DNA of 63,574 nucleotides, filler included, from Asterionella formosa (Eukaryota), in the NCBI GenBank assembly GCA_002256025.1. It is 23 parts of 23 records of this genome, joined end to end, with 100 filler letters (N's around TTAATTAATTAA, not from the genome) between each part and the next. Parts side by side here need not be neighbours in the genome. Positions count along the whole stretch, not along the records: positions 13,883 to 16,556 come from NKIB01014971.1; 22 more parts are not named here. The stretch is one strand, 5' to 3'. The translations under genes and the position numbers were made by a program. Under the pieces are notes generated by a model. The model did not search any database. It saw nothing but the letters and a program-made list of their open reading frames with translations, and had not been told where the DNA came from. Of this stretch, positions 2,778 to 41,267 are shown piece after piece; position 1 is the first letter of the stretch, and each line of letters begins with the position of its first letter.

Positions 2778-3230
2778 ATCTTGAACCAGAAAAATTAGCA
2801 TAAGCGGCAGATGTTGCTCCACCATTGTCTTCACTCTCCCCAGAAATCGCTATAAAATCATCATCAACATTTGGCTCATCAATATTGGGCTCATTGGGCT
2901 CTCTATCTATTCCAAGATCAGTGGATTCAATCTCAGCACTTGCATCTGCTTGTTGCTCGATTCTTCGAAAAATTTGTTTGGCATATCTCACCTCAGCAGG
3001 GCATGTTGGGTCCCCAGTTGGTTTCTTAACTTTGTGCAGCTGTGAAAACTTTCGGCGAAGTGAAGGTCCTGTCCGTTCTTTGCTTGTCTGGGAAATTCTC
3101 GTTGTGCTGTGATGCAACAACTTCCCATTCATGGGACCCAATTGGCAGGTGAGTAGAAATGGTTTCCAGCAATGAGAGAATCTCATTGATCCTGAACTGT
3201 TGACCCCGACTCTGCATGCTTCGGCGAGCT
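2778..3230 (-). pseudogene. Myb/SANT-like (DUF6818-type) protein, frameshifted; often transposon (Harbinger)-associated
   Basis: LPIGSHEWEVVASQHNENFP..R in one frame continues as LRRKFSQLHKVKKPTGDPTCPAEVRYAKQI in another, with a frameshift near 3070. The family assignment is from motif recall. Confidence 0.6.
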
Positions 3231-4788
3231 CTTGGAAACGTTGGTGCTCGCCTGGCAGTTGCTGTTCTTGAAACTGAACTAGTAGGAGCACGTGAAAAAT
3301 CGTTTTTGTTCCTTGATGGGGACTGAGTAACCCAAGAAACACCTGGGACACCTATCCTACTGTCCTCATCGTCACTGGCAAACTTATCAGCAACAGTGTC
3401 ATCTTCATTGTTGTCGTCGTCGTCGTCCTCCTCCTCTTCTTCTGGTTGAGTCTGTTCTTGTTGTTCTTGTTGCTGGTGACGGCGACGTTCAAGCAGCCTT
3501 GGAGAGGAAGGGAAGCCCTCCCTGGCTGGCTGCTCTCCTTTGACCAGAAGAAGATGAAGACATGGCCGAAATCTAAAAGCGATGACGATCGATTTATTGA
3601 GGAGGTTGATTGATAGTATGTAACGATATGCATATGTATATGCATACCTATTTTGGCAAGAGCAAGCCATTTTGAGTATGAGCAAGCAAGTCTTGAAATA
3701 TTCCGGGAAATTCTATATACTCATTCATGTCTAAACATCTTTTTATATAATGCACTGTTATTTATAACTGTAAAAAATTTGTGTTTGTGTTGACCAAATT
3801 TGGTAATCCTGGTAAGCACCTGCAGGTAAGGAGAGGAAGGTGTGAGTGATATGACACCAACAGCAGGTGAAGGAGGGAAGTCTGAGCTGCCAGTTTGCTT
3901 TTGGAACTATATACTTGGGTTGCACTGCCTCCCAGCAGATCGAGATGCAATGTCACCTAGTTTTGAAACTAAGGTGGATGACATCAGCCAGCCAGTCAAC
4001 TCTCATCTTGAAGGAGTTTTGACTCTTGACTACTAGTATTATTGGTGGTAGCAGGAGTGACAAGTATGCAGAATGATGATTGAGAGTCCAGAAATGCCTC
4101 AAATGTGTTGTTTGAAGAAGTTTTCAACAATTAACAAGTTGATGAACCAACAGAAATGATGCAGGATGTGCGTCAAAGAGGTAGGAGGGAGGAAGCAATT
4201 CTTTCAGTATTGTAGCCTTTCTGTTACACCAAAAACTATTTGTTCTGTGGTAGGAATGCAAAGTTGGAATTAGGTTTGTAAGGTGGCTGAAAATGTTACA
4301 AGGGTTGGACAGGATAGAGTAAGGAAGGTGGAGTATTGTTACTTCTTGGCAAAGCGTTGTGTGGGATACTATGATGACTGCCCTACTTTGAGCTGCGTTT
4401 TTTTCACTGCCACATTGCAAATCGACAAAATGTATGAGGTATATATTCCAGATAGAAAAGTGCCACAGATTAGATTGCCAATGAATTGATATCTGCTGAT
4501 CATCATCACACTGGTGGTCATACACAGCTAGTATGTATTTAGGTTATCATTACAAAGATGCATGATTTCATACTACTGGAGCTACATTACTTTTTTCACT
4601 ATTTTTCATTAGCTATACATTGATTGTTTTCACTTCATTTCGGGTATATATGTATTATCCATATACATACCTACCAGTAATAGACTTGGTCCTCTATTTA
4701 CTGTAATGTAGTGCTATAGTATATGTACTCGTGGTGACTTCATATTAAGTACTCTAAATATATACAATGGTCTATTCCCCGAATACAC

Positions 4789-4892
4789 GTACCCTGGTAC
4801 CCTGGTACCAGGGTACCAGTCGATAGGAGCAATGGTACCAGTACCGGTATTGTCGCTAGCTTTGTGAACTGAACTGGAGTACTACCGGTAGT
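4789..4892. repeat. TA-CCCTGG/CCAGGG/CCAG/CCGG-TA footprint-like array
   Basis: GTACCCTGGTACCCTGGTACCAGGGTACCAG...GGTACCAGTACCGGTA...TACTACCGGTAGTA. Confidence 0.8.
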
Positions 4893-5554
4893 AAACCACT
4901 AGTGCTAGCTTCCACTACGGGTTTAACTGGGAGTTTTATTACCACTACGTTCCCAGTATGCTGAAACTAAAAGTTAACCTTCTTATTCACACCCTGAATT
5001 TTAGGTCAAACCGACACCTAAAAAATGGTCGGTGCAAAATGTACACACGAGAACGACTTCTACCTCGGGCGGACCACACCCATCCATACCTAATACAGAA
5101 AGTACTGATAATACGTTGCAGGGTGGAGCAGATGACAAAAAATATTGTAACTATAGCATACACACAATATGTAAATTACGACTCACTATCACTTCATTTC
5201 AACCTCAACCAAATGATAGAATGTAGATGAAATGAATATCTAGCTATGAGTAGTGTCAGTTCTACTTGTTCTGTTGAAAATTGTTGACAACATTCAACAA
5301 TCGTGGCCTGATTCTTCGGTTGACTGATTGAACCAAATTAATTCCTTTGTTCATTTCAATAACTACTAGTAGCAATTCATTAGCATCAAAGTTTCAAAAT
5401 CAGAGTTTCGATGTTAACATTGTATTCTTTAGTAGTAGATTTATCCATACTGCTNNNNNNNNNNNNNNNNNNNNNNNNNNNNNNNNNNNNNNNNNNNNTT
5501 AATTAATTAANNNNNNNNNNNNNNNNNNNNNNNNNNNNNNNNNNNNNNNNNNNN

Positions 5555-10124: not shown

Positions 10125-10178
10125 TACTACCGGTAGGTACATGGTATGGTATGGTATGGTATGGTATGGTATGGTACC
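10125..10178. repeat. (TATGG)n / TA-CCGG-TA array
   Basis: TACTACCGGTAGGTAC followed by ATGGT x7 and ACC, directly beside the gypsy LTR end. Confidence 0.85.
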
Positions 10179-10181
10179 GAG

Positions 10182-11006
10182 TGAAGTATCTAACTAGAAG
10201 TAGTAGTATTTGTTGAATATATGAGCTTATTTGTTAATCCTTGTGTGTAACTCGTTCTCCAAGTCGACACCAAAGTATACAATGAGGGTTAGTCGAGTTC
10301 TCTCATTATTGAGTTCTTATACATACATGATATAACACTAACCCTATATACATCTGTATTGATGCGCAAGATCGCTCACTCTCCCACACCAAGGGAAAAC
10401 CTTTTACCTTTGAAAAGGTTTGATGTAATGGATATTAATTCAGTCCGTAGTATGCATAGTTTGTTGAAAAGTAACTGGACCATTGGCATATACTTGAATA
10501 AATAGAATAAGGACCTCGTCCATGGTTATCCAAGGTAGTAGGATTATCCGATAGGATTAAAACCTCATCAACAACCTTGTAATCGCAAGAACGACGACGG
10601 AAAGTATCACGACGTAGTCATTTGTCAATTATCACTTATCGACATTGATATCCCAATATCAATTACATATCTATAATCAAATCATGTTGTAAAACCCATG
10701 TTCCTGGTGAAAATACACAATGTACTATAAATAGTAGCTCGAGCTGCATATGATGCAGCAAACTGGTATCCACAATATTCTGAACTTGAAATTCCTTGAT
10801 TGGAGGATGAGCCTTTAACATGACTTGTACATAGGCTTTTAATGTGTATGAAAGGAATACCAGTAAATTGACCTCCATTGTCATGTATACAACCTTCTGG
10901 ACGGAGATATCCGTCCAACCAATCATTTTTAAATTTCATCGCAATATATTCTGATGTCTTATTATTGATATGTGAAATTTCTGGTAAATTGGTGACTGTG
11001 TTAACT
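10182..11006 (-). mobile_element. Older diverged copy of the same gypsy family: LTR (10182..10378) plus a decayed, internally deleted integrase
   Basis: Clear but diverged similarity to 1430-2350 (KFKNDWL, IHDNGGQF, AASYAARAT), with frameshifts. Confidence 0.92.
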
Positions 11007-12158: not shown

Positions 12159-12353
12159 TGAGCAATCCTGCACATCGATACAGATATATATAGAGTTGGG
12201 GTTATGTCAAATATATCGGAATTCAATAATGAGAGAACTCGACTAACACCCATTCTATACTTTGATGTCAGTTCAGGAAATGAGTTATACATAAGGATTA
12301 ATTAATAAGCTCATATATTCAACAAATACTACTACTTCTAGTTAGATACTTCA
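12159..12353 (+). mobile_element. Ty3/gypsy 3' LTR, copy 2
   Basis: PPT GGGAGAG at 12152-12158, then TGAG...TTCA, followed by CCAGGTACC. Confidence 0.85.
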
Positions 12354-12498
12354 CCAGGTACCTGATGCCAGGAACATGGTATCAGCCTACCGGCGGTACC
12401 TGGTACCTGGTACCAGGTACCGGTAACTGAATTTGTGTGGAGCGATATACATACCGGTTCTGGTACCTGGTACCAGGTACCAGTACTGGTACCGGTAC
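12354..12498. repeat. TA-CCWGG/CCGG/CCAG/CTGG-TA footprint-like array
   Basis: GGTACCTGGTACCTGGTACCAGGTACCGGTA and GGTACCTGGTACCAGGTACCAGTACTGGTACCGGTACC. Confidence 0.85.
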
Positions 12499-13229: not shown

Positions 13230-13782
13230 AAGCAATGAATTTACCAGGGAAGAGAAGCTCCTCTGTAATAAATTTAGATCCGGTGTAGAGGAACGGAGTG
13301 CCAATGAGGAGGAAGAACAACGGGTTGATTCTCAACACAGTCGACAAGAGTTCGAAACCAATACCAAGCCAAACACTTGTGAGAACAATAATGGCGGGAA
13401 GGTAGAGAAGATTTGATCTGAATTGGTCTTCTTTCAATGTGACAGTGCAAATTCCAGTGTCGATCTAGCATTTTGGAGATGTTGAGACTGCAAACTTCGA
13501 TCCAGTTTCCTTGAGCTCCGTCTTCAATGCGTCAAACTCAGCATCTGGCATCATCGGTTCACCTTTCAAGTATGCTTTCGGTTCATGACAACCATGTCAG
13601 ATCCGTTCCATTGCAAATCTTCCTTCAATAGGTCAAACTCGTCATCCTTGAGCATTTGCCTTCCAGTGGCATACCGGTAGTAGGACTGAAGCGCGTCCAG
13701 AAAGATACGCTCCTTTTCGGCTACTGTGAGACGAATGAGTTCCCCACTTTCCGGATCGACGACACAGTATTCCTCGTCAGGA
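13230..13782 (-). pseudogene. PGRL1: PGR5-like 1 (PGRL1) homologue, pseudogenised fragment
   Basis: EKERIFLDALQSYY..G..MLKDDEFDLLKEDLQWNGS...AYLKGEPMMPDAEFDALKTELKETGS..PKC followed by TM segments matches the PGRL1 tandem motif. It has a frameshift near 13575 and an in-frame TAG near 13467. Confidence 0.85.
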
Positions 13783-13976: not shown

Positions 13977-14156
13977 GAGGATGAATTTATGCAAGTACCG
14001 GGTACATACCGGTACAATGAAAAAGACTGCTCTGAGATATGCACTCGCACCTTTGTTCATATTCCAGTACATACATAGGATGTGGTACCGGTAGGAGTAC
14101 ACAGAAGGACAAACAGTAAGGTTGCTGGCATGATACTAAAAATATAGCACCTGGTA

Positions 14157-16052
14157 CCAGTCAAAAACTGCTTAAGACCACTATATTACCCCGTTTTTGG
14201 GCTAAAATTAGAAAAATGTTCAGCCGACCCCATTTAAAACCCTTTGAACAGAGGTCAACTAATGCATGCAAGCACTAGATAAATGAATCATTTTAACAAT
14301 TGGAAGGATATATGTTGCGATATCGCACTTTTTAAATCGTTGATTTTGCACTTTAGTGGTCTAAAACAATTCATATACTTTTTATCATGTATATGTACTT
14401 TTTAATGGTAAATGGTTAAAAGATATTACCTCGTTTTCCATGATTTCTCCAATTTCTTATGTCAACTGACGTCGATTTATTGTGCAAACAACAACACATA
14501 AATCACTTTTCCATAATCACAACTTCATCCTCGTCATCCCCTGCAGCTGAGGCTGATGGTGGCAGTATTGCTACAGCAACTGGGACTGGTGCATCGCCAC
14601 CTCTGATTGTATCAACATACTCGGTAAGCAGTAGTTGTTTCGTTGCAGGTTATGCATGGTGCATCGCCAGTTCGTTTGTACCACAACACGATTGTCTTTG
14701 TTTGCGCCACCGTCCATTTTTGTGGCCGTTTGTTGAGAGCTCTGATCGCTTGCACCTCGTTCAATGTTGCTTTATAATCCATAACTTTCTTATTCGCTTT
14801 CTCACTCTCCTTCTACACTGCTCTTCTTTTCTCCTAGTCATGTCGTCCAGTGCTTCCGTTCCCAGTTTAAAGCGTCCAGTCGCCACACGAAGTCCTGCCA
14901 TATACCTTTTATTTTGTGCGATCGCCAATAGTGCCAACTGGCAAGCCATCTGATCAAGATTGATGCCGACCACATGCTTGCGGTGCTGGAGCAAGTTTCA
15001 TGGTCTCAATGGAATTTTTTGTTTATATTTGTCCCCCCCCCCCTTCTCACCGGAAAGTTGTGTTTGTTGAGTCTCATGCTGTTCCGGTCTATCGGCTAGA
15101 TTATTGTTTCTCACACTGCTGTGCTTATCTTCATTACATGTAACTGGTGTCAAAGTGGACGAAGCAGTAGTGGTGGCTCTGGTTCCAAAGGTAAGTGTAC
15201 TGCTAGTTTCGATTTGTTCTGCTGGGGAACAATCCAATAGCACTATAGAATTCAAACCCTCTACTACTAGATCTTTCTTGTCATTATTCAATTTCTTCAA
15301 AGGGTACTTCACCATGTCTTTTGTTTGCCACGTTATTGTGTCAACTTTGTCTGCTACTAATAATCTAGCTAGCAATAGCAAAACTTGGTAAATCAACTCC
15401 TCCACTGTTAGCCTTTCTAGCGTCTACTTCTCTGACATTGTTGTTTAGAACAAGCTTTACTTTATCCTTATCTAGAGACTTAAAAATAACTCTGTACTTG
15501 CTCAAGGTTTGGCACTTTTTCGGTACATTATACTAAGTTGTAAGATCCAGAGAAATGAAAATGTGATATATTGTGATGGTCTCAAGAGCATTTCAGGATG
15601 CATCGATGTTGACAGTACAAAATCACTAAATTGCTATGGTGCGAACTAGTGAGTATGTTTACATTGGGATGTTGCACACAATCGCGCCGTAATCATAAAA
15701 AATTCACCTCAAGAAAAGCGTTAAAGGAAGCTATGTTAATTTGGAGTATAAAATTATATATTATCGTATATTAAATATAAATGTCGGCCCAGCTAAACGA
15801 GGTAATTTTGTTTTCTTCCAATGTCGTGCCTCACTCAACATTTTCGAAGTCGTTTATCTCACGAACTGGAACACAACATCGATCGGGCTTTAAGACATCC
15901 TAAGATATATGTAGATGCGTGAAACAAATGACTTGTTTATAGTAAATATTTTCGTATTGCTAAAATTGAAAAAGTTTGTAGTACAAAATGTAAGATTACC
16001 CTGTCATAGTGGTCTAAGTAGTTCATAGTGGTCTAAAGCAGTTTTTAACTGG
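14157..16052. mobile_element. Complete non-autonomous TA-targeting TIR DNA transposon (Tc1/mariner/pogo-like), 1896 bp
   Basis: Left end TA|CCAGTCAAAAACTGCTTAAGACCACTAT; right end ATAGTGGTCTAAAGCAGTTTTTAACTGG|TA. The TIRs are 28 bp with 2 mismatches and TA lies on both sides. Extra TAGTGGTCTAA copies occur at about 14354 and 16007. Confidence 0.9.
14560..14960 (-). pseudogene. Decayed ORF inside the TIR element, possibly a transposase C-terminal region
   Basis: Frame-joined reading ...FKLGTEALDD..K-rich..VQAIRALNKRPQKWTVAQTKTIVLWYKRTGDAP.PATKQLLLTEY. The assignment is inference only. Confidence 0.35.
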
Positions 16053-16398
16053 TACCTGGTACCTGGTAACTGGTAAACGGTACCAGCACCGGGATAGTGG
16101 TGTCTATTTTATGTTTGGCTGATCTAACGGTTACCGGTGCGTATACTGGCGAAAATTTGCGTCCGTGTCATGTACCGGTACCAGGGTACTGGTACCAGGT
16201 CCTGTCCGTGAATGCGGTGTACCTGGTATGCTATTATCATGTGGCTGGTGGGTCAGTGATGTTTCCTTCGCTCATGATCATATATGCGGCCATTATTGTT
16301 TGGCAGAATGGTGATGGTCGTTATACATCATCGGCCTTGTCTTTTTTATAGAATACCTGGAGACTATACATAGGCTGTACTGCGTGCGCCGATTGACA

Positions 16399-25193: not shown

Positions 25194-25400
25194 GAATCAA
25201 GCAAAAACGAAACTAGTCCTGATGAGGAATACTGTGTCGTCGATCCGGAAAGTGGGGAACTCATTCGTCTCACAGTAGCCGAAAAGGAGCGTATCTTTCT
25301 GGACGCGCTTCAGTCCTACGTTGCCACTGGAAGGCAAATGCTCAAGGATGACGAGTTTGACCTATTGAAGGAAGATTTGCAATGAAAGAACGGATCTGAG
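25194..25400 (+). pseudogene. PGRL1: Second PGRL1 fragment, preceded by an intron-like acceptor
   Basis: PDEEYCVVDPESGELIRLTVAEKERIFLDALQSYVATGRQMLKDDEFDLLKEDLQ*. Near-identical to the reverse complement of 13597-13782. A pyrimidine tract plus TAG lies at 25191-25193. Confidence 0.85.
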
Positions 25401-28608: not shown

Positions 28609-30803
28609 ATAGATAGGGAACAGGAATTCCGACGTTTTCTTTCTTGGCTTGGCAAAGGATGACTATCAGAATAGGGGTTCCATATTCAGTACTTCAGATC
28701 TCTCAGAGTAAAGGTTCCAATTTTAGTACTTTGGAGGCCACATGAACCTCTTTCATCAGGACATTCATTTTTGACGGGTTTTGAAAGGCAAGCTTGTAGC
28801 TGCAGCAGTGTGGCACAGCAAGCAGTATTGTAATGAACGATGATTATGATAGGATTTTTTGGTTCTTGGTGCTGTGCAATTGCGAGCCTCAGCCCTCAAA
28901 TAGCCCATACACACATGATACTTAGGGAAATTTCATCAAAGTGCATAAATATAGATTCCATCAGGGTGATGACTATCTGTGTATAATGCCACGAGAAAAC
29001 AACTACCAGGAAAAAATGGCTGTTTGTCCAATACTACCCTCAAATGATCAAACTTCACTCCAAGTTCAACCTAGAAGTGCTATGTCTGGATGCAATTTTT
29101 GGGGCCACCGGGTAGACCCTGTAGGACTAGCATTAGCATAAACCCTAGACCTATGGTATATAATATTTTGCGCCTGGATTGGCATGTTATAATCACGTCC
29201 ACCATGTTGTTAGTATTATTCTGTTGCTTTACTCAACAATAGTAGAACATCCTCCTGTGCTGCTTCAAATAGCTTTCTTTCCTTCATGAGTTGCTAGCGC
29301 TACTATTAAACACCGGAAGCGGCATGGGACGACACAATTTGCTTTATATCTGAACTTTTTGTGTTGGGCACGGAGATCCACACCTACATGACCAATGGTT
29401 TCATGCTCTTGAGCTTGATAGTGGGCAAGCTGGAGTTGAAACTGTACAGGAATGTCTCAAATAAGATCATATAGTAGTTGCAATGAAGATACAACAACGA
29501 TTTCACTCCCATTGCTGCGCAGAGGACTTCGATTTCATGTTCATCATGAATGAATGCAACGATGGTAACAACGAGATTGCGGATGCATGTGTACATAAAC
29601 TTTATTCATATGTGTGTTATTTGTATATTTTGTACTGGTAGCCAGAATTATTTTGTACCGGTAGCTACGATGGCTACCCAATGTAGTTTCATGATGTATC
29701 CAGCCATATGTAGGGATACGGTGTTAAATTATAAACTGGGAATGAGCTGAAGTTAGACTTTTGCCGAAATACCGGCCTACTGTCCGTAAATTTCTACGAA
29801 AATCAGCGTAAGTGTCCGGTAGATATCTGATGTTGACGACTCCAACCCACGAACCGTTATTACCCGGTACTGTATTGATCACGGTTCTCGTGTCTCCGTG
29901 TGAGCCAACGACGACTCGATATGCAGTCACGCGGCTCGTTTACCTTGTAGTGGGCAATAGCAAATTACATGCACGGGACTAATAACAATACCGGCATACT
30001 TGATGGCTCAACGCAGGCTTTCGCGGCACCAAATTGGGGTCATGCAAAGAACGGCGTACGTTTGGAAATAGTTCTGTCACGCTGCACTTTAGGAAGCATT
30101 TTGAAAGAAACCCAGGAGGACTAAAGTTACAGTATATATATCATCAATGTACATACCGTTTATGTTTATGTACTATGGTACCTGGTACGTGGAAGCACAA
30201 ACAACGGCGCATGGCTATGCTGCCATTGAAAATTCATTTAGCTGGCGGTAACTAGCGCTACCTGCTACATGCTGGTACTTTGTGCACTGTGCCTGCATCT
30301 ACATTCTTCAACGGCCGATGACGAGGAGGGGAACACGGATTGCACGCTTACGTTCCCATTGCTATCTCTTATGTATACGTCATATCAGCTATCAGGTGTC
30401 ACACTTTACTCTCGTATANNNNNNNNNNNNNNNNNNNNNNNNNNNNNNNNNNNNNNNNNNNNTTAATTAATTAANNNNNNNNNNNNNNNNNNNNNNNNNN
30501 NNNNNNNNNNNNNNNNNNTGGGACGACGAGCGACAGCAGAGCTGACGAAAGTAATGGACGAGCCTCCCACTGTAGCGATTTGCGGCCTCTTGGGATCGCA
30601 CCTGGAAGGCATGAGGTATTTAGCTTTGGACACAACGGAACACTGCGATTTCGGATAGCACTTACAGCTACAACGACAAGCGGCGATCCTCGCCTCTGCC
30701 TTGGCACGGGGTTGTCAGCGACAAGAGCTTCATTTTCATTCAAACTAAAATTCACATTGGTGGCACTAGAAGCATCAGGGGATGTCATTGTCATGGTACC
30801 TGG

Positions 30804-33180
30804 TGAAGTATCTAACTAGAAGTAGTAGTATTTGTTGAATACCGGGTATATGAGCTTATTAATTAATCCTTATGTATAACTCATTTCCTGAACTGACATC
30901 AAGTACAGAATGGGTGTTACCGGGTAGTCGAATCCTCTCATTATTGAATTCCGATATATTTGACAAAACCCTAACTCTATATATATCTGTATCGATGTGC
31001 AGGATTGCTCACTCTCCCACACTTGGGGGAAAACCTTTTACCTATGAAAAGGTTTGATACGACGAATATTAATTCGTTCGGTAATATGCGTAGTGCGTTG
31101 AAAAGTAACTGTACCATTGGCATGTACTTGAATAATAGTATAAGGACCTCGTCCACGATCATCCAAAGTAGTAGGATTATCCAATAATATTAAAATCTCG
31201 TCACCCACTTTGTAATCATAAGATCGACGACGGAAATTAGCACGACGTAAATGTTCGTCAATTATCACTTGTCGACGTTGATGTATTAATTGTAAATCTG
31301 TAATCAAAGGAATATTTAATATCAAATCACGTTGAAAAACCCATGCTCCTGGTGAAATACGTAATATACTATGAATAGTACTAGCTCGAGCTGCATATGA
31401 CGCAGCTGCAAAACATATATCCACAATATTTTGGGCTTGAAATTCATTGATTGGAGGATGAGCCTTTAACATAACTCGTAGACTATTGCTGATAGATTGA
31501 TGTACCGGTAAACGTTCACAGATAGCATTTGCTTGTGGATTCTTTGCTTACTGTGGTAGTCACATCTTTGATTCCATTCAATACTAACATGTGTAAGAAA
31601 GGAGCACCAGTAAATTCACCTCCATTGTCATGTATACAACGTTCTGGATGGGGATATCTGGCTAACCTATCATTTTCAAATTTCATTGCAATATATTCTG
31701 ATGTTTTATTGGTGATACGTGAAATTTCTGCTAAATTGCTTGGGGACTGTGTCAATACAAGTTAGAGCACGAAATTCAATCGTTTGAGCAGCCACTGTTA
31801 TCTTCCATGGACCAATTAGATCTACTGCGACTTCTGACCATGGTAATAATAATGCATTCCTGGGTGGAAGTTCACCAAAACCAGTACCAGGTAATTTTGT
31901 ACGCTGACATGCTTCACATACTCTTACAATATGTTCCACTCTTGCTTTTAATGTAGGGTGATAAAAATGTGTAGCAATTGTAGCATTTAATCTTGTCATA
32001 CCCACATGAGCTAACATCTGATGATACCAATTAATAATAGGATCCAATAATGATGTAGGAATAGCAATACGCCAAGTATCTCCTGGATTCTTCACAAAAC
32101 ATATTGAAAATATATCATGAAAATTGATAGAAGGAAATTTTAATGGATGTGTTTGTTGATTGAGAATCAATTGTATATCCAGCAATTGTCTATCATGCAT
32201 TAAATGATAATCCAGAGGATATTGAATATTGTCTGTCAAGATGGGATGATTAAGGAAACATGTAAGCAGAGGTTCATCATCTAATTCAATTGAAAAAGTA
32301 GAAGAAGAAAATGATGTTGGAGATTTCGGTCCAATATCAATATCATCCTCCACCAAAGACTCAAGCCTCGGGAGGCGAGAGATGGAATCTGCAATAGCAT
32401 TGTCAGTCCCTTTCACATAGTGAAAAGTAGGATGATATTCTTCAATATAAAGTCTCCATCTTAGAACACGTTGATTATGTAAAGTATTATAAATAAGATT
32501 TCGATGATCAGTGTGAACATGTAGAACTGCGCCCAATAACATAGAGCGAAATTCTTTGAAAGTTTCTACCACAGAAAGTAATTCTTTTTCAATAGTAGTA
32601 TAATTCTTTTGAGCAGCAGATAATTTGCGAGAATAATAAGCAACTGGGAGATCATTTTGAGATCATTTTGCATAATGACCGACCCTAGCTAATTGATAAT
32701 CAGAGGCTGTGTATTAAAAAAAAGGTCATATAGCATGACACTGGCATGAGATGAATAAGTACCAGCTATGGTATGTATTAATTGGGAAGTCTCATCAGAC
32801 AAAGAAATACTTTGAGGCATAACCCGTTCATGTATTAAGGATAATGATCCTCCACTATCGAATAAAACTCGTAGTATTTTATGTATCGGTATATTATCCA
32901 CCAATTTTGGCGCTAAAAGGGACATCGGAATCAAATCAATTGATGCTAATATATCCTTAGAAGTAAAACAGGAAACCGGAATTGGTCCCTGATATGTATG
33001 TGGAACATCATGTCCATCAATACAGTTATATAAATCCCGCGTTACATTAACAGCGGTATCCATAGTGTATTCAACCTGTAAATAAACAATATTATTCAGG
33101 TGATGACTAACGTGAGATATACTCAACGAGTCATTATAACGCTATTATCGCACATACCTCTGTAATGGCGATCAGCAATC
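30804..33180 (-). mobile_element. Gypsy copy 4: protease region, RNase H, integrase, 3' LTR (30804..31011); RT deleted; frameshifted
   Basis: Protease motif VLFDSGG; RNase H motifs EKELLSVVETFKEF, HTDHRNL and NAIADSISRL. Integrase and LTR are about 98% identical to copy 1 by manual comparison. Confidence 0.93.
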
Positions 33181-35948: not shown

Positions 35949-37240
35949 NNNNNNNNNNNNNNNNNNNNNNNNNNNNNNNNNNNNNNNNNNNNTTAATTAA
36001 TTAANNNNNNNNNNNNNNNNNNNNNNNNNNNNNNNNNNNNNNNNNNNNTCGATGTTCCATACATGCCATCAAGACTAGTCTTGTTCTTATGTTTGCGATC
36101 GTCTTATCAGCTAAAGCAGATGTTGTTGATCAGTTGGCTGGTTGACAGCGGTTGAGTCTCCTCATGAAATGACAGGAATGTCAATATGTATACCCGGTAA
36201 ACTGTACGTGCCGGTAGCTAATGGACAACAGAAATCATCCAGATTCTTCCTCCTTCTTGCTTGGGCTGACACCTGAAAATGGTGCCGCGTCTCAAATTTT
36301 GTCATCATACCGGTAGTAGGAGTGTGGTACGGTACTTACTAACTATGTAGGGACGAGCATCATTTACATAATGTATTTTATATTATTATTAATTAAGAAC
36401 GTACCGGTAAATAGCACCGGTGCGGTACTCCGAGTACCGTAGGACCGGTAAGTATGTTGAAGCAATGCTAACAAACACAAACTGGTCACCTGCTATACCA
36501 CCTGATTACCATGTACCATATTGTGTACTTACAGACAAGCAATCCTTTGCCACATGCCTCCTCGTTGTTCTACCTGGGCACGTTTGCACGAATGGGAGAC
36601 CTGGCTGTTGATTGGCATTGTCGATCAACACACAAGGACACCTAACAATCCAGCGGACTGCTTAAACCTGGTACCAGGTATGGTTCCAGTACTCTATTGT
36701 ACATCGATACGCGATACCAGGGAACTCCTTCTGTGGTACCAGGTACAATAAAATAACACTTGCATCGATGATTCAAACTTCTCCGTGGCCATTTTCACTC
36801 TTGCGACTTTTTCCGGCTAAATTGCCCTATTGTGTGGCTTGCTATAAGCTATTGACGCATGAATATATTAAATACTATATACAAGCAAAAAAAAAAATTG
36901 GCAACTACATCTCAAATTTTTTTAGAGCTTTTTCGATTTCACCCTACATATGGCTTCTACGGGTATCTCGAACAAAACGCAGATCATGACCCATTTTTCT
37001 TCGAATCACAAACTAGTGTACCGGTATTCTCAACAAGTAGGATATAACGTCATCAATTCTATCACGACTTGATAATGACGTAGGTATGCTAATTATTTCG
37101 CATAAAAAATGTTGATGTTTAATTTAATTAATGATATGTTTTACCAGCACATAAGTAATATTGTCCCTCAACATAACATCACACATCAGTATCATACACC
37201 GGTACAGGTAGCATGAGTCGCACGTACTCAACGGTACTCA

Positions 37241-37335
37241 CCAGCAAGTTGCGGTCATTTTGCTTCACTAACATTTTAATCTGCGATAAAAATAGCTAAA
37301 TCTTTAGTTTCAGCAAAATTACCGCAACTTGCAGG
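37241..37335. mobile_element. 95-bp MITE-like hairpin
   Basis: CCAGCAAGTTGCGGTCATTTTGCT ... AGCAAAATTACCGCAACTTGCAGG|TA: 24-bp arms with 2 mismatches. The left flank is CA rather than TA. Confidence 0.7.
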
Positions 37336-37554
37336 TAGGTACACCTGCCTGGAAGGTCCGGTGATCAGCGAATTGCGCGCACTATATACTAAAAATTCCA
37401 CGTAGCGGTTTCAACCTACCGGTACTTCATTAGAAGTCTGTCCGGCTCACCAATTCCGAAATGATGAAAATCTCAAATTATTTCAATTTATTTAGATTAC
37501 CTGTAATTGTTACAAACTTTCAAACGGAAAAGCGCTGCCACCTTTCACCGCAGA

Positions 37555-37990: not shown

Positions 37991-38816
37991 TTTTGACAAT
38001 GAAATGAGTAACGGCTTAATGTCTATGTAAATGACTATTTAAAGAATATCGGAGTGGCACAAAATTTAGGGGTTCGACAATTTTTGGGGTATACCCCTTC
38101 CTTTTTCTCGTATGTGAATCAATGAACAGAAAACGAGCAACCTGCACGCTATGTGCACTGATTACCGGACCTTCCTGGTCCTGTACCCTGGTACATGGTG
38201 GAATTTCTTGGACGACACCACCGTATGCTGCAAGGTTCCATTGCTCCGTTGGTAATCATTCTACCAAAATTTGGCAGTACCGGGACTACCGGTATACTAC
38301 GTTTTAGAATTTTTGTCTTTCTCCATACCATATTTTCATCACGGTCAAGGAAGGAATACCGGACAGTACTGACCTGTCCAGAGTACCGGTAGAACACTCC
38401 CGGAGCCCTATCTTAAAGGAAAATACTACATTATCCAATAATGTACTGGTATATTTTGCTAAATTGGTTGGTAGGGAATAGTTGGAATCATGGAATCAAG
38501 AATTACGGAAGCATTCAACCCAACAAATATCTGTGGGGTGCATGATATCATAAAATATGATGAGAGAGATGACTTCTCGATTCTTGTTGATTTCCTTCTC
38601 ACACTTATCTTGACAACAGGATCGTTTTTGTCCCTGTTTACTGATCCACCATGTTCTCCATCCTTTCCCGTCGTGCTCTCTCCAATCCTACGGCTTTGGT
38701 CTTCACGTTCCGCACTNNNNNNNNNNNNNNNNNNNNNNNNNNNNNNNNNNNNNNNNNNNNTTAATTAATTAANNNNNNNNNNNNNNNNNNNNNNNNNNNN
38801 NNNNNNNNNNNNNNNN

Positions 38817-41225: not shown

Positions 41226-41267
41226 TTAGGGTTAGGGTTAGGGTTAGGGTTAGGGTTAGGGTTAGGG
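41226..41267 (+). repeat. Interstitial telomeric repeat (TTAGGG)7
   Basis: Seven perfect units plus a degenerate TAAAGGG, with unique sequence on both sides. Confidence 0.95.

Follow-up and report, generated by a model that had tools for sequence, protein, structure and literature searches.

Transposases of the Tc1/mariner superfamily insert at TA dinucleotides, duplicate the TA and excise by staggered cuts of 2–3 nucleotides (nt) that leave tip nucleotides behind, and a TA followed by a few tip letters and a second TA is the textbook excision footprint of this superfamily. For Sleeping Beauty, Tc1 and Tc3 the canonical footprints are TA-CAG-TA or TA-CTG-TA, and TACATGTA; a CCAG-type tip is known from Mos1; and Micron, a miniature inverted-repeat transposable element (MITE) of rice, targets (TA)n microsatellites. 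Here we describe an element with inverted ends in a 63,574-nt stretch of DNA from the eukaryote Asterionella formosa (GenBank assembly GCA_002256025.1), referred to below as the window, where it lies amid arrays of short TA-bounded units that we call scars. On balance we think it probable that this copy, old and fixed, belongs to a high-copy, non-autonomous transposon family of Tc1/mariner type that targets TA, that the scars are excision footprints and that the arrays grew by re-insertion.

The locus resembles Mos1 and the Tc1/mariner superfamily in the TA on both sides of the element and its inverted ends of about 28 nt, in the TA–tip letters–TA form of the scars counted in the window, and in a candidate enzyme whose modelled structure best matches those of Mos1, Metnase and Sleeping Beauty. 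It differs in that the element itself carries no transposase, that the candidate protein has about 900 amino acids (aa) and no Pfam or PDB sequence match, and that the studied tips share no microhomology, with no single canonical scar dominating. In mariner proper (DD34D) 34 residues separate the second catalytic aspartate from the third, whereas conservation in the candidate family suggests 37. As in Sleeping Beauty, Tc1 and Tc3, a duplicated TA flanks 2–5 letters of both tips, which makes for palindromes or near-palindromes, but the letters here are CC..GG, and neither TACAGTA/TACTGTA (9 sites) nor the Tc1-like TACATGTA (2 sites) is enriched. With microsatellite-targeting MITEs such as Micron the locus shares a non-autonomous element inside short tandem arrays; the units here, in contrast, match the tips of the element and arise de novo at single TAs, and the element, at 1.9 kb, is not miniature. 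Cut-and-paste transposition of the Tc1/mariner type is already known, and the scar arrays are an unusual genomic consequence of it. To our knowledge, neither such scar density nor scar arrays nor insertion beside scars is familiar from described Tc1/mariner families. In search listings and abstracts of open-access literature and bioRxiv we found no account of scar arrays or of TACCGGTA as a footprint; by term search, neither mariner nor footprints nor excision came up in one diatom transposable-element preprint, and PMC5751038 yielded no information on how long the duplications of Sola elements are.

Scar units are enriched in the window

The window strings together 23 unrelated contigs, each about 2.67 kb long, in descending order of length, joined by N44-TTAATTAATTAA-N44 (2678–2777, 5455–5554 and so on), so that features adjacent across contigs are not linked. 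The element and its arrays lie entirely inside a single contig of 2,674 bp (NKIB01014971.1; 13883–16556). Scars were counted in these 61 kb of small contigs and in about 10 kb of related contigs; expectations for the words TACCGGTA, TACCWGGTA and TACCAGTA came from 100 shuffles each, and those for TA-X-TA units, counted without bias, from 300 second-order Markov simulations.

All three words were far more frequent in the window than in shuffled sequence, with 27 sites of TACCGGTA (0.35 expected), 18 of TACCWGGTA (0.32 expected) and 20 of TACCAGTA (1.55 expected). The control palindromes TAGGCCTA, TACGCGTA and TAGCGCTA occurred 0, 0 and 2 times, respectively. An unbiased 8-mer screen placed TACCGGTA second by ratio, after a telomere-repeat word, with related words next, and most of its 27 sites are solitary within otherwise unique sequence. 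In the TA-X-TA screen CCGG took the top rank (27 sites against 0.58 expected), and CCAGG/CCTGG (18 against 0.66) and CCAG/CTGG (20 against 2.85) were likewise raised, as were two units absent from the list in the preliminary description, CCAGGG/CCCTGG (8 against 0.12) and CCCGG/CCGGG (5 against 0.20). There was no clear excess of CCG/CGG (5 against 4.9) and none of CAG/CTG (9 against 11.2), and CCATGG, the full 3+3 product of the two tips, had no site in the window (0.15 expected). The counts of 27, 18 and 20 for CCGG, CCWGG and CCAG/CTGG, together with 0 for CCATGG, match what heterogeneous joining of tip remnants would be expected to give. The vocabulary of remnants proposed in the preliminary description therefore holds for CCGG, CCAGG/CCTGG and CCAG/CTGG, and has no clear support for TGG (CCA/TGG), which was not clearly above chance.

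Scars are insertions that duplicate TA

Four copies of one Ty3-type retroelement lie in the window, and the third of them (contig 30519–33180) is 95.8% identical to the first. Around position 30840 copy 3 reads GAA-TA-CCGGG-TA-TATG where three sisters read GAA-TA-TATG; around 30918 it reads TGT-TA-CCGGG-TA-GTCG where two sisters read TGT-TA-GTCG; and around 31379 it reads TAG-TA-C-TA-GCTC where the sisters read TAG-TA-GCTC. It also has TACCGGTA at 31503 where two sisters have TC, and elsewhere in the window the TACCGGTA at 13672 lies opposite AC in its paralogue (25310–25328). Scars account for four of the six indels of at least 3 nt that separate copies 1 and 3. The three clean cases stand at A-TA-T, T-TA-G and G-TA-G, which makes TA, and not GTAC, the target that is duplicated. 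As judged from these sequence comparisons, scar units are mutational insertions that duplicate TA and add C..G letters.

The element belongs to a highly repeated family

The preliminary description had reported an element of 1,896 bp that has 28-nt terminal inverted repeats and TA on each side, preceded by CCTGG-TA and followed by TA-CCTGG-TA-CCTGG-TA. Sequence inspection and repeat search bear this out, with 2 mismatches between the ends and a further ACTGG-TA unit after the array (Table 1). A 27-nt end pattern, with up to 3 mismatches allowed, matched twice in the window, whereas 100 shuffles gave an expectation of 0.00. The motif CATAGTGGTCTAA is present in a single copy at the left end, besides the inverted copy at 14354. 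At 1,896 bp the element exceeds the bound of less than about 800 bp for MITEs, and shorter deleted forms exist, in locus L002 and as contig joints.

Table 1 Features of the element, its flanks and the candidate transposase locus (positions in the window unless a locus is named)
Feature	Position	Strand	Remarks or basis
Non-autonomous transposon copy	14157..16052	+	1,896 bp; inverted ends; 92–93% identity to the L001, L004 and L005 copies
Left terminal inverted repeat, 28 nt, CCAGTCAAAAACTGCTTAAGACCACTAT, tip CCAGTCAAAAACTG	14157..14184	+	
Right terminal inverted repeat, 28 nt	16025..16052	-	Reverse complement of left, 2 mismatches in 28 nt
Left TA, copy of target-site duplication	14155..14156	.	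Homology between copies stops here (alignment A1)
Right TA, copy of target-site duplication	16053..16054	.	Sequence; homology between copies stops here (alignment A1)
Scar-like unit CCTGG, directly 5′ of left TA	14150..14154	.	Sequence
Scar array TA-CCTGG-TA-CCTGG-TA-ACTGG-TA	16053..16075	.	ACTGG equals the final 5 nt of the element
Second scar array TA-CCGG-TA-CCAGGG-TA-CTGG-TA-CCAGG	16173..16203	.	Sequence, unit counts
Upstream scar cluster TA-CCGGG-TA-CA-TA-CCGG-TA	13996..14014	.	TACCGGTA at 14007 is one of the 27 sites
Lone scar TACCGGTA	14086..14093	.	Word count
Additional internal AGACCACTA motif, inverted copy (presumed transposase binding site)	14354..14371	-	Repeat search
Two direct CATAGTGGTCTAA copies, right-end subterminal repeat, the second within the inverted repeat	16005..16036	+	Alignment A4
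Broken orphan reading frames in the element, probably not a real protein	14503..15423	-	No Pfam match; sole homologue P0001
640-aa open frame, 3′ open, start about 570 nt inside the sister end	L005:1-1920	-	Relatives P0002–P0268

Scanning metagenome contigs with a 20-nt inner-end pattern gave five loci, four of which (L001, L002, L004 and L005) hold copies; the fifth, L003, was set aside as an apparent chance 20-nt match in unrelated DNA. The copies are 92–93% identical to the window copy and 98–99% identical among themselves, and homology between copies ends exactly at TA on both sides. The copy in L004 is complete, its tips pairing perfectly across the 18 nt compared, and TA flanks both it and the window copy on both sides. 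The proposed search for further ends and their flanks thus added four copies with TA at the edge of homology, all from metagenome loci. A prokaryotic genome collection yielded one decayed, truncated relative (L006) with unreadable ends, and neither the end pattern nor the array pattern matched any viral contig.

Next, assembled contigs of four public runs (X1, X2, X3 and X7) were aligned to the element's contig; the runs that contain parts of this contig are labelled as freshwater or algae metagenomes. Contig depth over the flanks was 492–1,235 in X1, 3.6–5.8 in X2, 161–206 in X3 and 86–281 in X7, whereas the summed depth over the interior reached 77,000–683,000, 22–484, 2,100–44,000 and 1,300–40,000, respectively. 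The interior thus exceeded the flanks by one to three orders of magnitude in the four runs, with the step in the end-bearing bins; summed contig depth is a sign of repetition, not a copy number. The interior of the element is highly repeated across public runs.

In all four runs the flank contigs break off once they have entered the left end by about 20 nt, and among the rows listed the left junction is seen in four of the four runs and the right junction in three. The run contigs, by majority letter, match the copies from the metagenome loci and not the window copy, for example at 14201 (G>A), 14314 (G>C) and 14326 (C>A). This, together with the divergence of the window copy and junctions in every run examined, indicates that the window copy, at an occupied site, is old and has diverged from the rest of the family. 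The preliminary description had suggested looking for empty or excised alleles; the site proved occupied in all four runs, and no excised allele appeared among the joints listed. Other copies of the element carry a scar as well: 16 contig pieces of run X1 have CCGGTACCTGGTA at 15648, a place at which the letters of the window copy are unrelated, so that scars arise inside elements too. Two deleted forms were also seen, an internally deleted derivative (L002:192–459) in which the left 100 nt are fused to the 14546–14709 region, and a 93-nt deletion form (14175->14269) present in all four runs at single-copy-like depth.

No Pfam domain was found in the open reading frames (ORFs) of the element. 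The longest internal frame, of 156 aa in L001, has as its sole homologue P0001, itself another copy of the element, and the Atlas model of P0001 has a predicted local distance difference test (pLDDT) score of 0.39 and no meaningful structural neighbour. On these grounds we rejected the internal frames as a functional gene. Among the 55 scanned of the 98 window ORFs of at least 90 aa (overlapping opposite-strand frames were left out of the scan) and three frames from the loci, no DNA transposase was found; retroelement domains, host genes and a single DUF6818 match made up the whole yield of the scan. Lacking an encoded enzyme, the element can at most be a substrate and not the maker of scars.

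Family ends lie beside scars

Seven family ends, from five insertion sites, are visible, and every one of them adjoins a scar unit. Their flanks were compared with all 4,070 TA sites of the window. A G precedes the TA at all seven ends, against 26% of window TA sites; GG precedes it at six of seven, against 7%; and a further TA and scar unit adjoin at five of seven, against 1.6%. The sister element end in L005 described below is likewise adjoined by TA-CCAGGGG-TA.

When the window and the loci are taken together, 10 of the 12 arrays of at least two units mix unit types, with CCAGG beside CCTGG, which fits independent events better than slippage. With 10 of 12 arrays mixed and most TACCGGTA sites single, the arrays do not form a homogeneous, single-orientation microsatellite. 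Arrays are often paired in inverted orientation around a segment of 40–560 bp (12397–12497; L002:820–1397), and the L002 segment between arrays is a MITE-like repeat also present at 38196–38410 of the window; such segments could be internally deleted elements left amid scars. Arrays also directly abut the long terminal repeat (LTR) of the Ty3-type retroelement in two of its four copies and lie within about 40 nt of it in a third, and the LTR tip may serve as a seed site for arrays.

A candidate transposase family

The autonomous transposase that the preliminary description hoped to find is absent from the element and the window, and a candidate enzyme family was instead encountered beside a sister end in L005. 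This locus holds a copy of the studied family and, about 500 bp away, a second element of which one end, ...CAGTTTTTAGGTGG|TA, is present. From the tip inward, this sister end consists of CCACCTAAAAACTG, two copies of an AGTCATA motif and AACGGGGTAATC, and the right end of the studied element follows the same plan, with CCAGTCAAAAACTG, two AGACCACTAT copies and AACGGGGTAATC (alignment A4). The sister end had no match in the window. Inside it lies the open frame listed in Table 1, for which a word-index search returned 229 relatives at E <= 1e-3, typically of 800–1,000 aa, some of them named as hypothetical proteins of a freshwater diatom; together with the freshwater and algal labels of the runs, these names suggest a diatom-like alga as host. 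A profile of the family recovered 9,123 representative clusters (1,417 at 1e-30). Conserved motifs of the family are FVDEVG, LLLDGHGSR and WQVGDS; viral contigs gave no match to the protein family.

An AlphaFold model of the relative P0004, built with 39 sequences, had a mean pLDDT of 77, with values above 90 over most of residues 400–730. VIA-align matched this model to the Mos1 catalytic domain with Z 12.3 (root-mean-square deviation 3.2 over 191 of 201 residues), to Metnase with Z 12.0 and to Sleeping Beauty with Z 11.0; with full-length Mos1 (Z 11.3–12.0) 253–313 residues aligned, extending into the N-terminal DNA-binding region, whereas retroviral integrases reached at most Z 8.7. D463, D612 and D650 (P0004 numbering) are conserved, and if the latter two are the second and third acidic residues of the active site, their spacing would be 37. 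The modelled fold suggests that this family is probably a long, unannotated branch of Tc1/mariner-fold transposases that is common in diatom-type data.

A model for scar formation and array growth

We propose that a transposase supplied in trans, possibly of the L005 type, would bind the 28-nt ends and the repeated AGACCACTA motifs of the studied family. Staggered cuts, the length of which we infer, would leave 2–3 (perhaps 4) nt of each tip on the flanking TA, CC or CCA from the left and GG or TGG from the right. CCA.../...TGG overhangs have neither complementarity nor microhomology and should therefore be joined heterogeneously: CC+GG, CCA+GG, CC+TGG, CCA+G and C+TGG would give TA-CCGG-TA, TA-CC(A/T)GG-TA, TA-CCAG-TA and similar scars, and for want of overlap between the tips the complete product, CCATGG, should seldom form. 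With every round of insertion and excision, one TA and one unit would be added, creating GG-TA or TA-CC contexts, and two adjoining scars would create GG-TA-CC. Insertion at a TA beside an older scar, in the context G-TA-C, would then pile scars into arrays. A preference for G-TA-C is suggested by the seven of seven flanks, and arrays would follow from it; such a preference for scar sites would be a property of the enzyme.

Alternative origins of the scars

The preliminary description had held that the family or its relatives make the arrays and re-insert into them. TA-duplicating insertions, fitting letters, ends lying beside units and the predicted fold of the candidate transposase family, which is the fold known for footprints of this kind, lend this partial support, with the correction that the element itself is no maker. 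Under excision and re-insertion as set out above, relatives that share its tips would not be the sole source of the scars; the studied family would have made them too. A serious but rather unlikely alternative is that the scars are true Tc1/mariner-type footprints left essentially entirely by other families with CC...GG tips, the studied family being only a resident that prefers G-TA-C. Short scars do not distinguish families, the sister end in L005 also starts with CCA, units diagnostic of CCAGT tips are few, the window copy is old and fixed, and CCCTGG and CCGGG units hint at tips that start with CCC. Set against this, the studied family is highly repeated and is alone, across the window and the loci, in having yielded a complete TA|CC element, TA-ACTGG-TA stands directly beside two of its copies (in the window and in L002), and the excess of CCAG/CTGG units fits G as the fourth tip base.

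Two further alternatives dispense with such footprints or change the target. It is improbable, in our view, that the arrays are an ordinary (GGTACCW)n microsatellite grown by replication slippage and merely targeted by the element. Slippage does also act on scar-like units, as the perfect (TATGG)6 microsatellite at 10145–10176, which adjoins a TACCGGTA scar and a retroelement LTR, testifies; four of six neighbouring CCWGG pairs are identical, and close GTAC pairs (50 against 7.3 expected) are compatible with any tandem repeat. Slippage leaves unexplained, however, why the units match the tips of the element, most TACCGGTA sites are isolated within unique sequence, the paralogues show TA-duplicating scars where no repeat existed, and the mixed arrays vary in unit orientation as well as type. 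More improbable still is a superfamily other than Tc1/mariner with CAG...CTG ends and a 4-bp GTAC duplication, the arrays consisting of GTAC and CAG/CTG footprints. All seven ends read G-TA-C, which as a string equals such a duplication; CAG or CTG between GTAC sites is a footprint of Sleeping Beauty type; and where GTAC sites lie close together, the spacer is most often CTG (7) or CAG (5) in the window, and CAG (7) or CTG (3) in the loci. The clean paralogue scars, by contrast, duplicate only TA, and it is these scars that favour TA over GTAC for the studied family, of which no copy was seen with an empty site; the base before TACCGGTA is G in 23, A in 16 and C in 15 of the 54 strand-sites (8-mer counts), the candidate enzyme family has a predicted Mos1-like fold, and the literature searched gave nothing relevant on GTAC duplication.

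Several observations weigh against our preferred reading, that of a non-autonomous Tc1/mariner-type family with excision footprints and re-insertion. With respect to the scars, those of up to 5 letters fit any family with CCA...TGG tips. CC/GG units are not above chance (21 against 26.6 expected) and CCA/TGG units not clearly so (19 against 13.7, six of them from the one (TATGG)6 run); units diagnostic of CCAGT tips (ACTGG/CCAGT) number only 3 against 0.56; and CCAGGG/CCCTGG and CCCGG/CCGGG require an extra C or G beyond the simple remnant scheme. Two of the five paralogue cases, those opposite TC or AC and not TA, need an additional base change and are weaker. The Ty3-type LTR itself begins with TGGTACCTGG (four copies: 1419–1431, 10171–10183, 30793–30805 and 12352–12364 on the minus strand; one copy TGGTACCGAG), so some copies of the motif are carried by repeats, and because the contigs are small, unplaced and probably repeat-rich, the scar density may not hold genome-wide.

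With respect to the element and its enzyme, the window copy is about 7% divergent from other copies, and no excised or empty joint (14156->16053) occurred among the 15 of 33 joints listed for the four runs, in contigs that cannot reveal rare alleles. No copy combining the exact ends of the studied family with a transposase was found in the window or the metagenome loci. The frame in L005 matches nothing in Pfam and no PDB sequence, and Foldseek ranked Mos1 transpososome chains first for the P0004 model, though weakly (E 0.03, probability 0.94). The sister and studied ends share 11 of 14 tip nt and differ in their binding motifs, so the L005 gene would serve the sister family; that proteins of its kind also mobilise the studied family is suggested by end architecture and co-residence on one contig.

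Other features of the window

The unit TA-GC-TA is raised in the window (32 against 11.3 expected), and in copy 3 of the Ty3-type retroelement TTGC is inserted at two TT sites relative to the sisters (TT-GC-TT; about 31544–31547 and a second site of 30519–33180). TTGC and TA-GC-TA may represent a second kind of footprint, from another type of element. A 101-bp inverted-repeat element (37238–37338; ends ..CAGCAAGTTGCGGTCATTTTGC) lies between two GTAC sites and has a relative next to the studied element in L001 (63–152); we considered it as support for GTAC duplication and rejected it, as its relatives have other flanks.

Long intron-free ORFs on other contigs encode a mitochondrial carrier, a WD40 protein and a GH18 chitinase, and these contigs also contain leucine-rich repeat proteins, Ty3- and copia-type retroelements and an interstitial TTAGGG run. 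The latter, (TTAGGG)7 at 41226–41267, falls within a long open frame of the opposite strand and reads PNPNPN there. The DUF6818 match (E 4e-11) belongs to an ORF at 2779–3351 on the minus strand, on a contig that also has scar arrays at 4790–4849.

Implications

Excision footprints are usually rare, single-locus curiosities, and here they seem to form a dominant, countable mutational signature: the strongly enriched units alone number about 78 across the 61 kb of small contigs. Readable directly from the genome, such a signature would allow past cut-and-paste activity to be gauged and targeting preferences to be tested, and would let transposition be traced to tandem arrays and in-frame indels. 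For annotation of diatom genomes and metagenomes it also matters that a family of 9,123 clusters lacking a Pfam model probably consists of Tc1/mariner-fold transposases.

More tentatively, and with our own judgement leaning somewhat against it, the lineage may build its own landing pads: scars would be preferred G-TA-C targets that seed further insertions and give rise to GGTACC-rich arrays genome-wide, driven by a Mos1-fold branch of about 900 aa that would be widespread in diatom and other aquatic data. If so, much of the short-indel variation of these algae, often in-frame and of 6 bp, and much of their microsatellite-like DNA would stem from scars.

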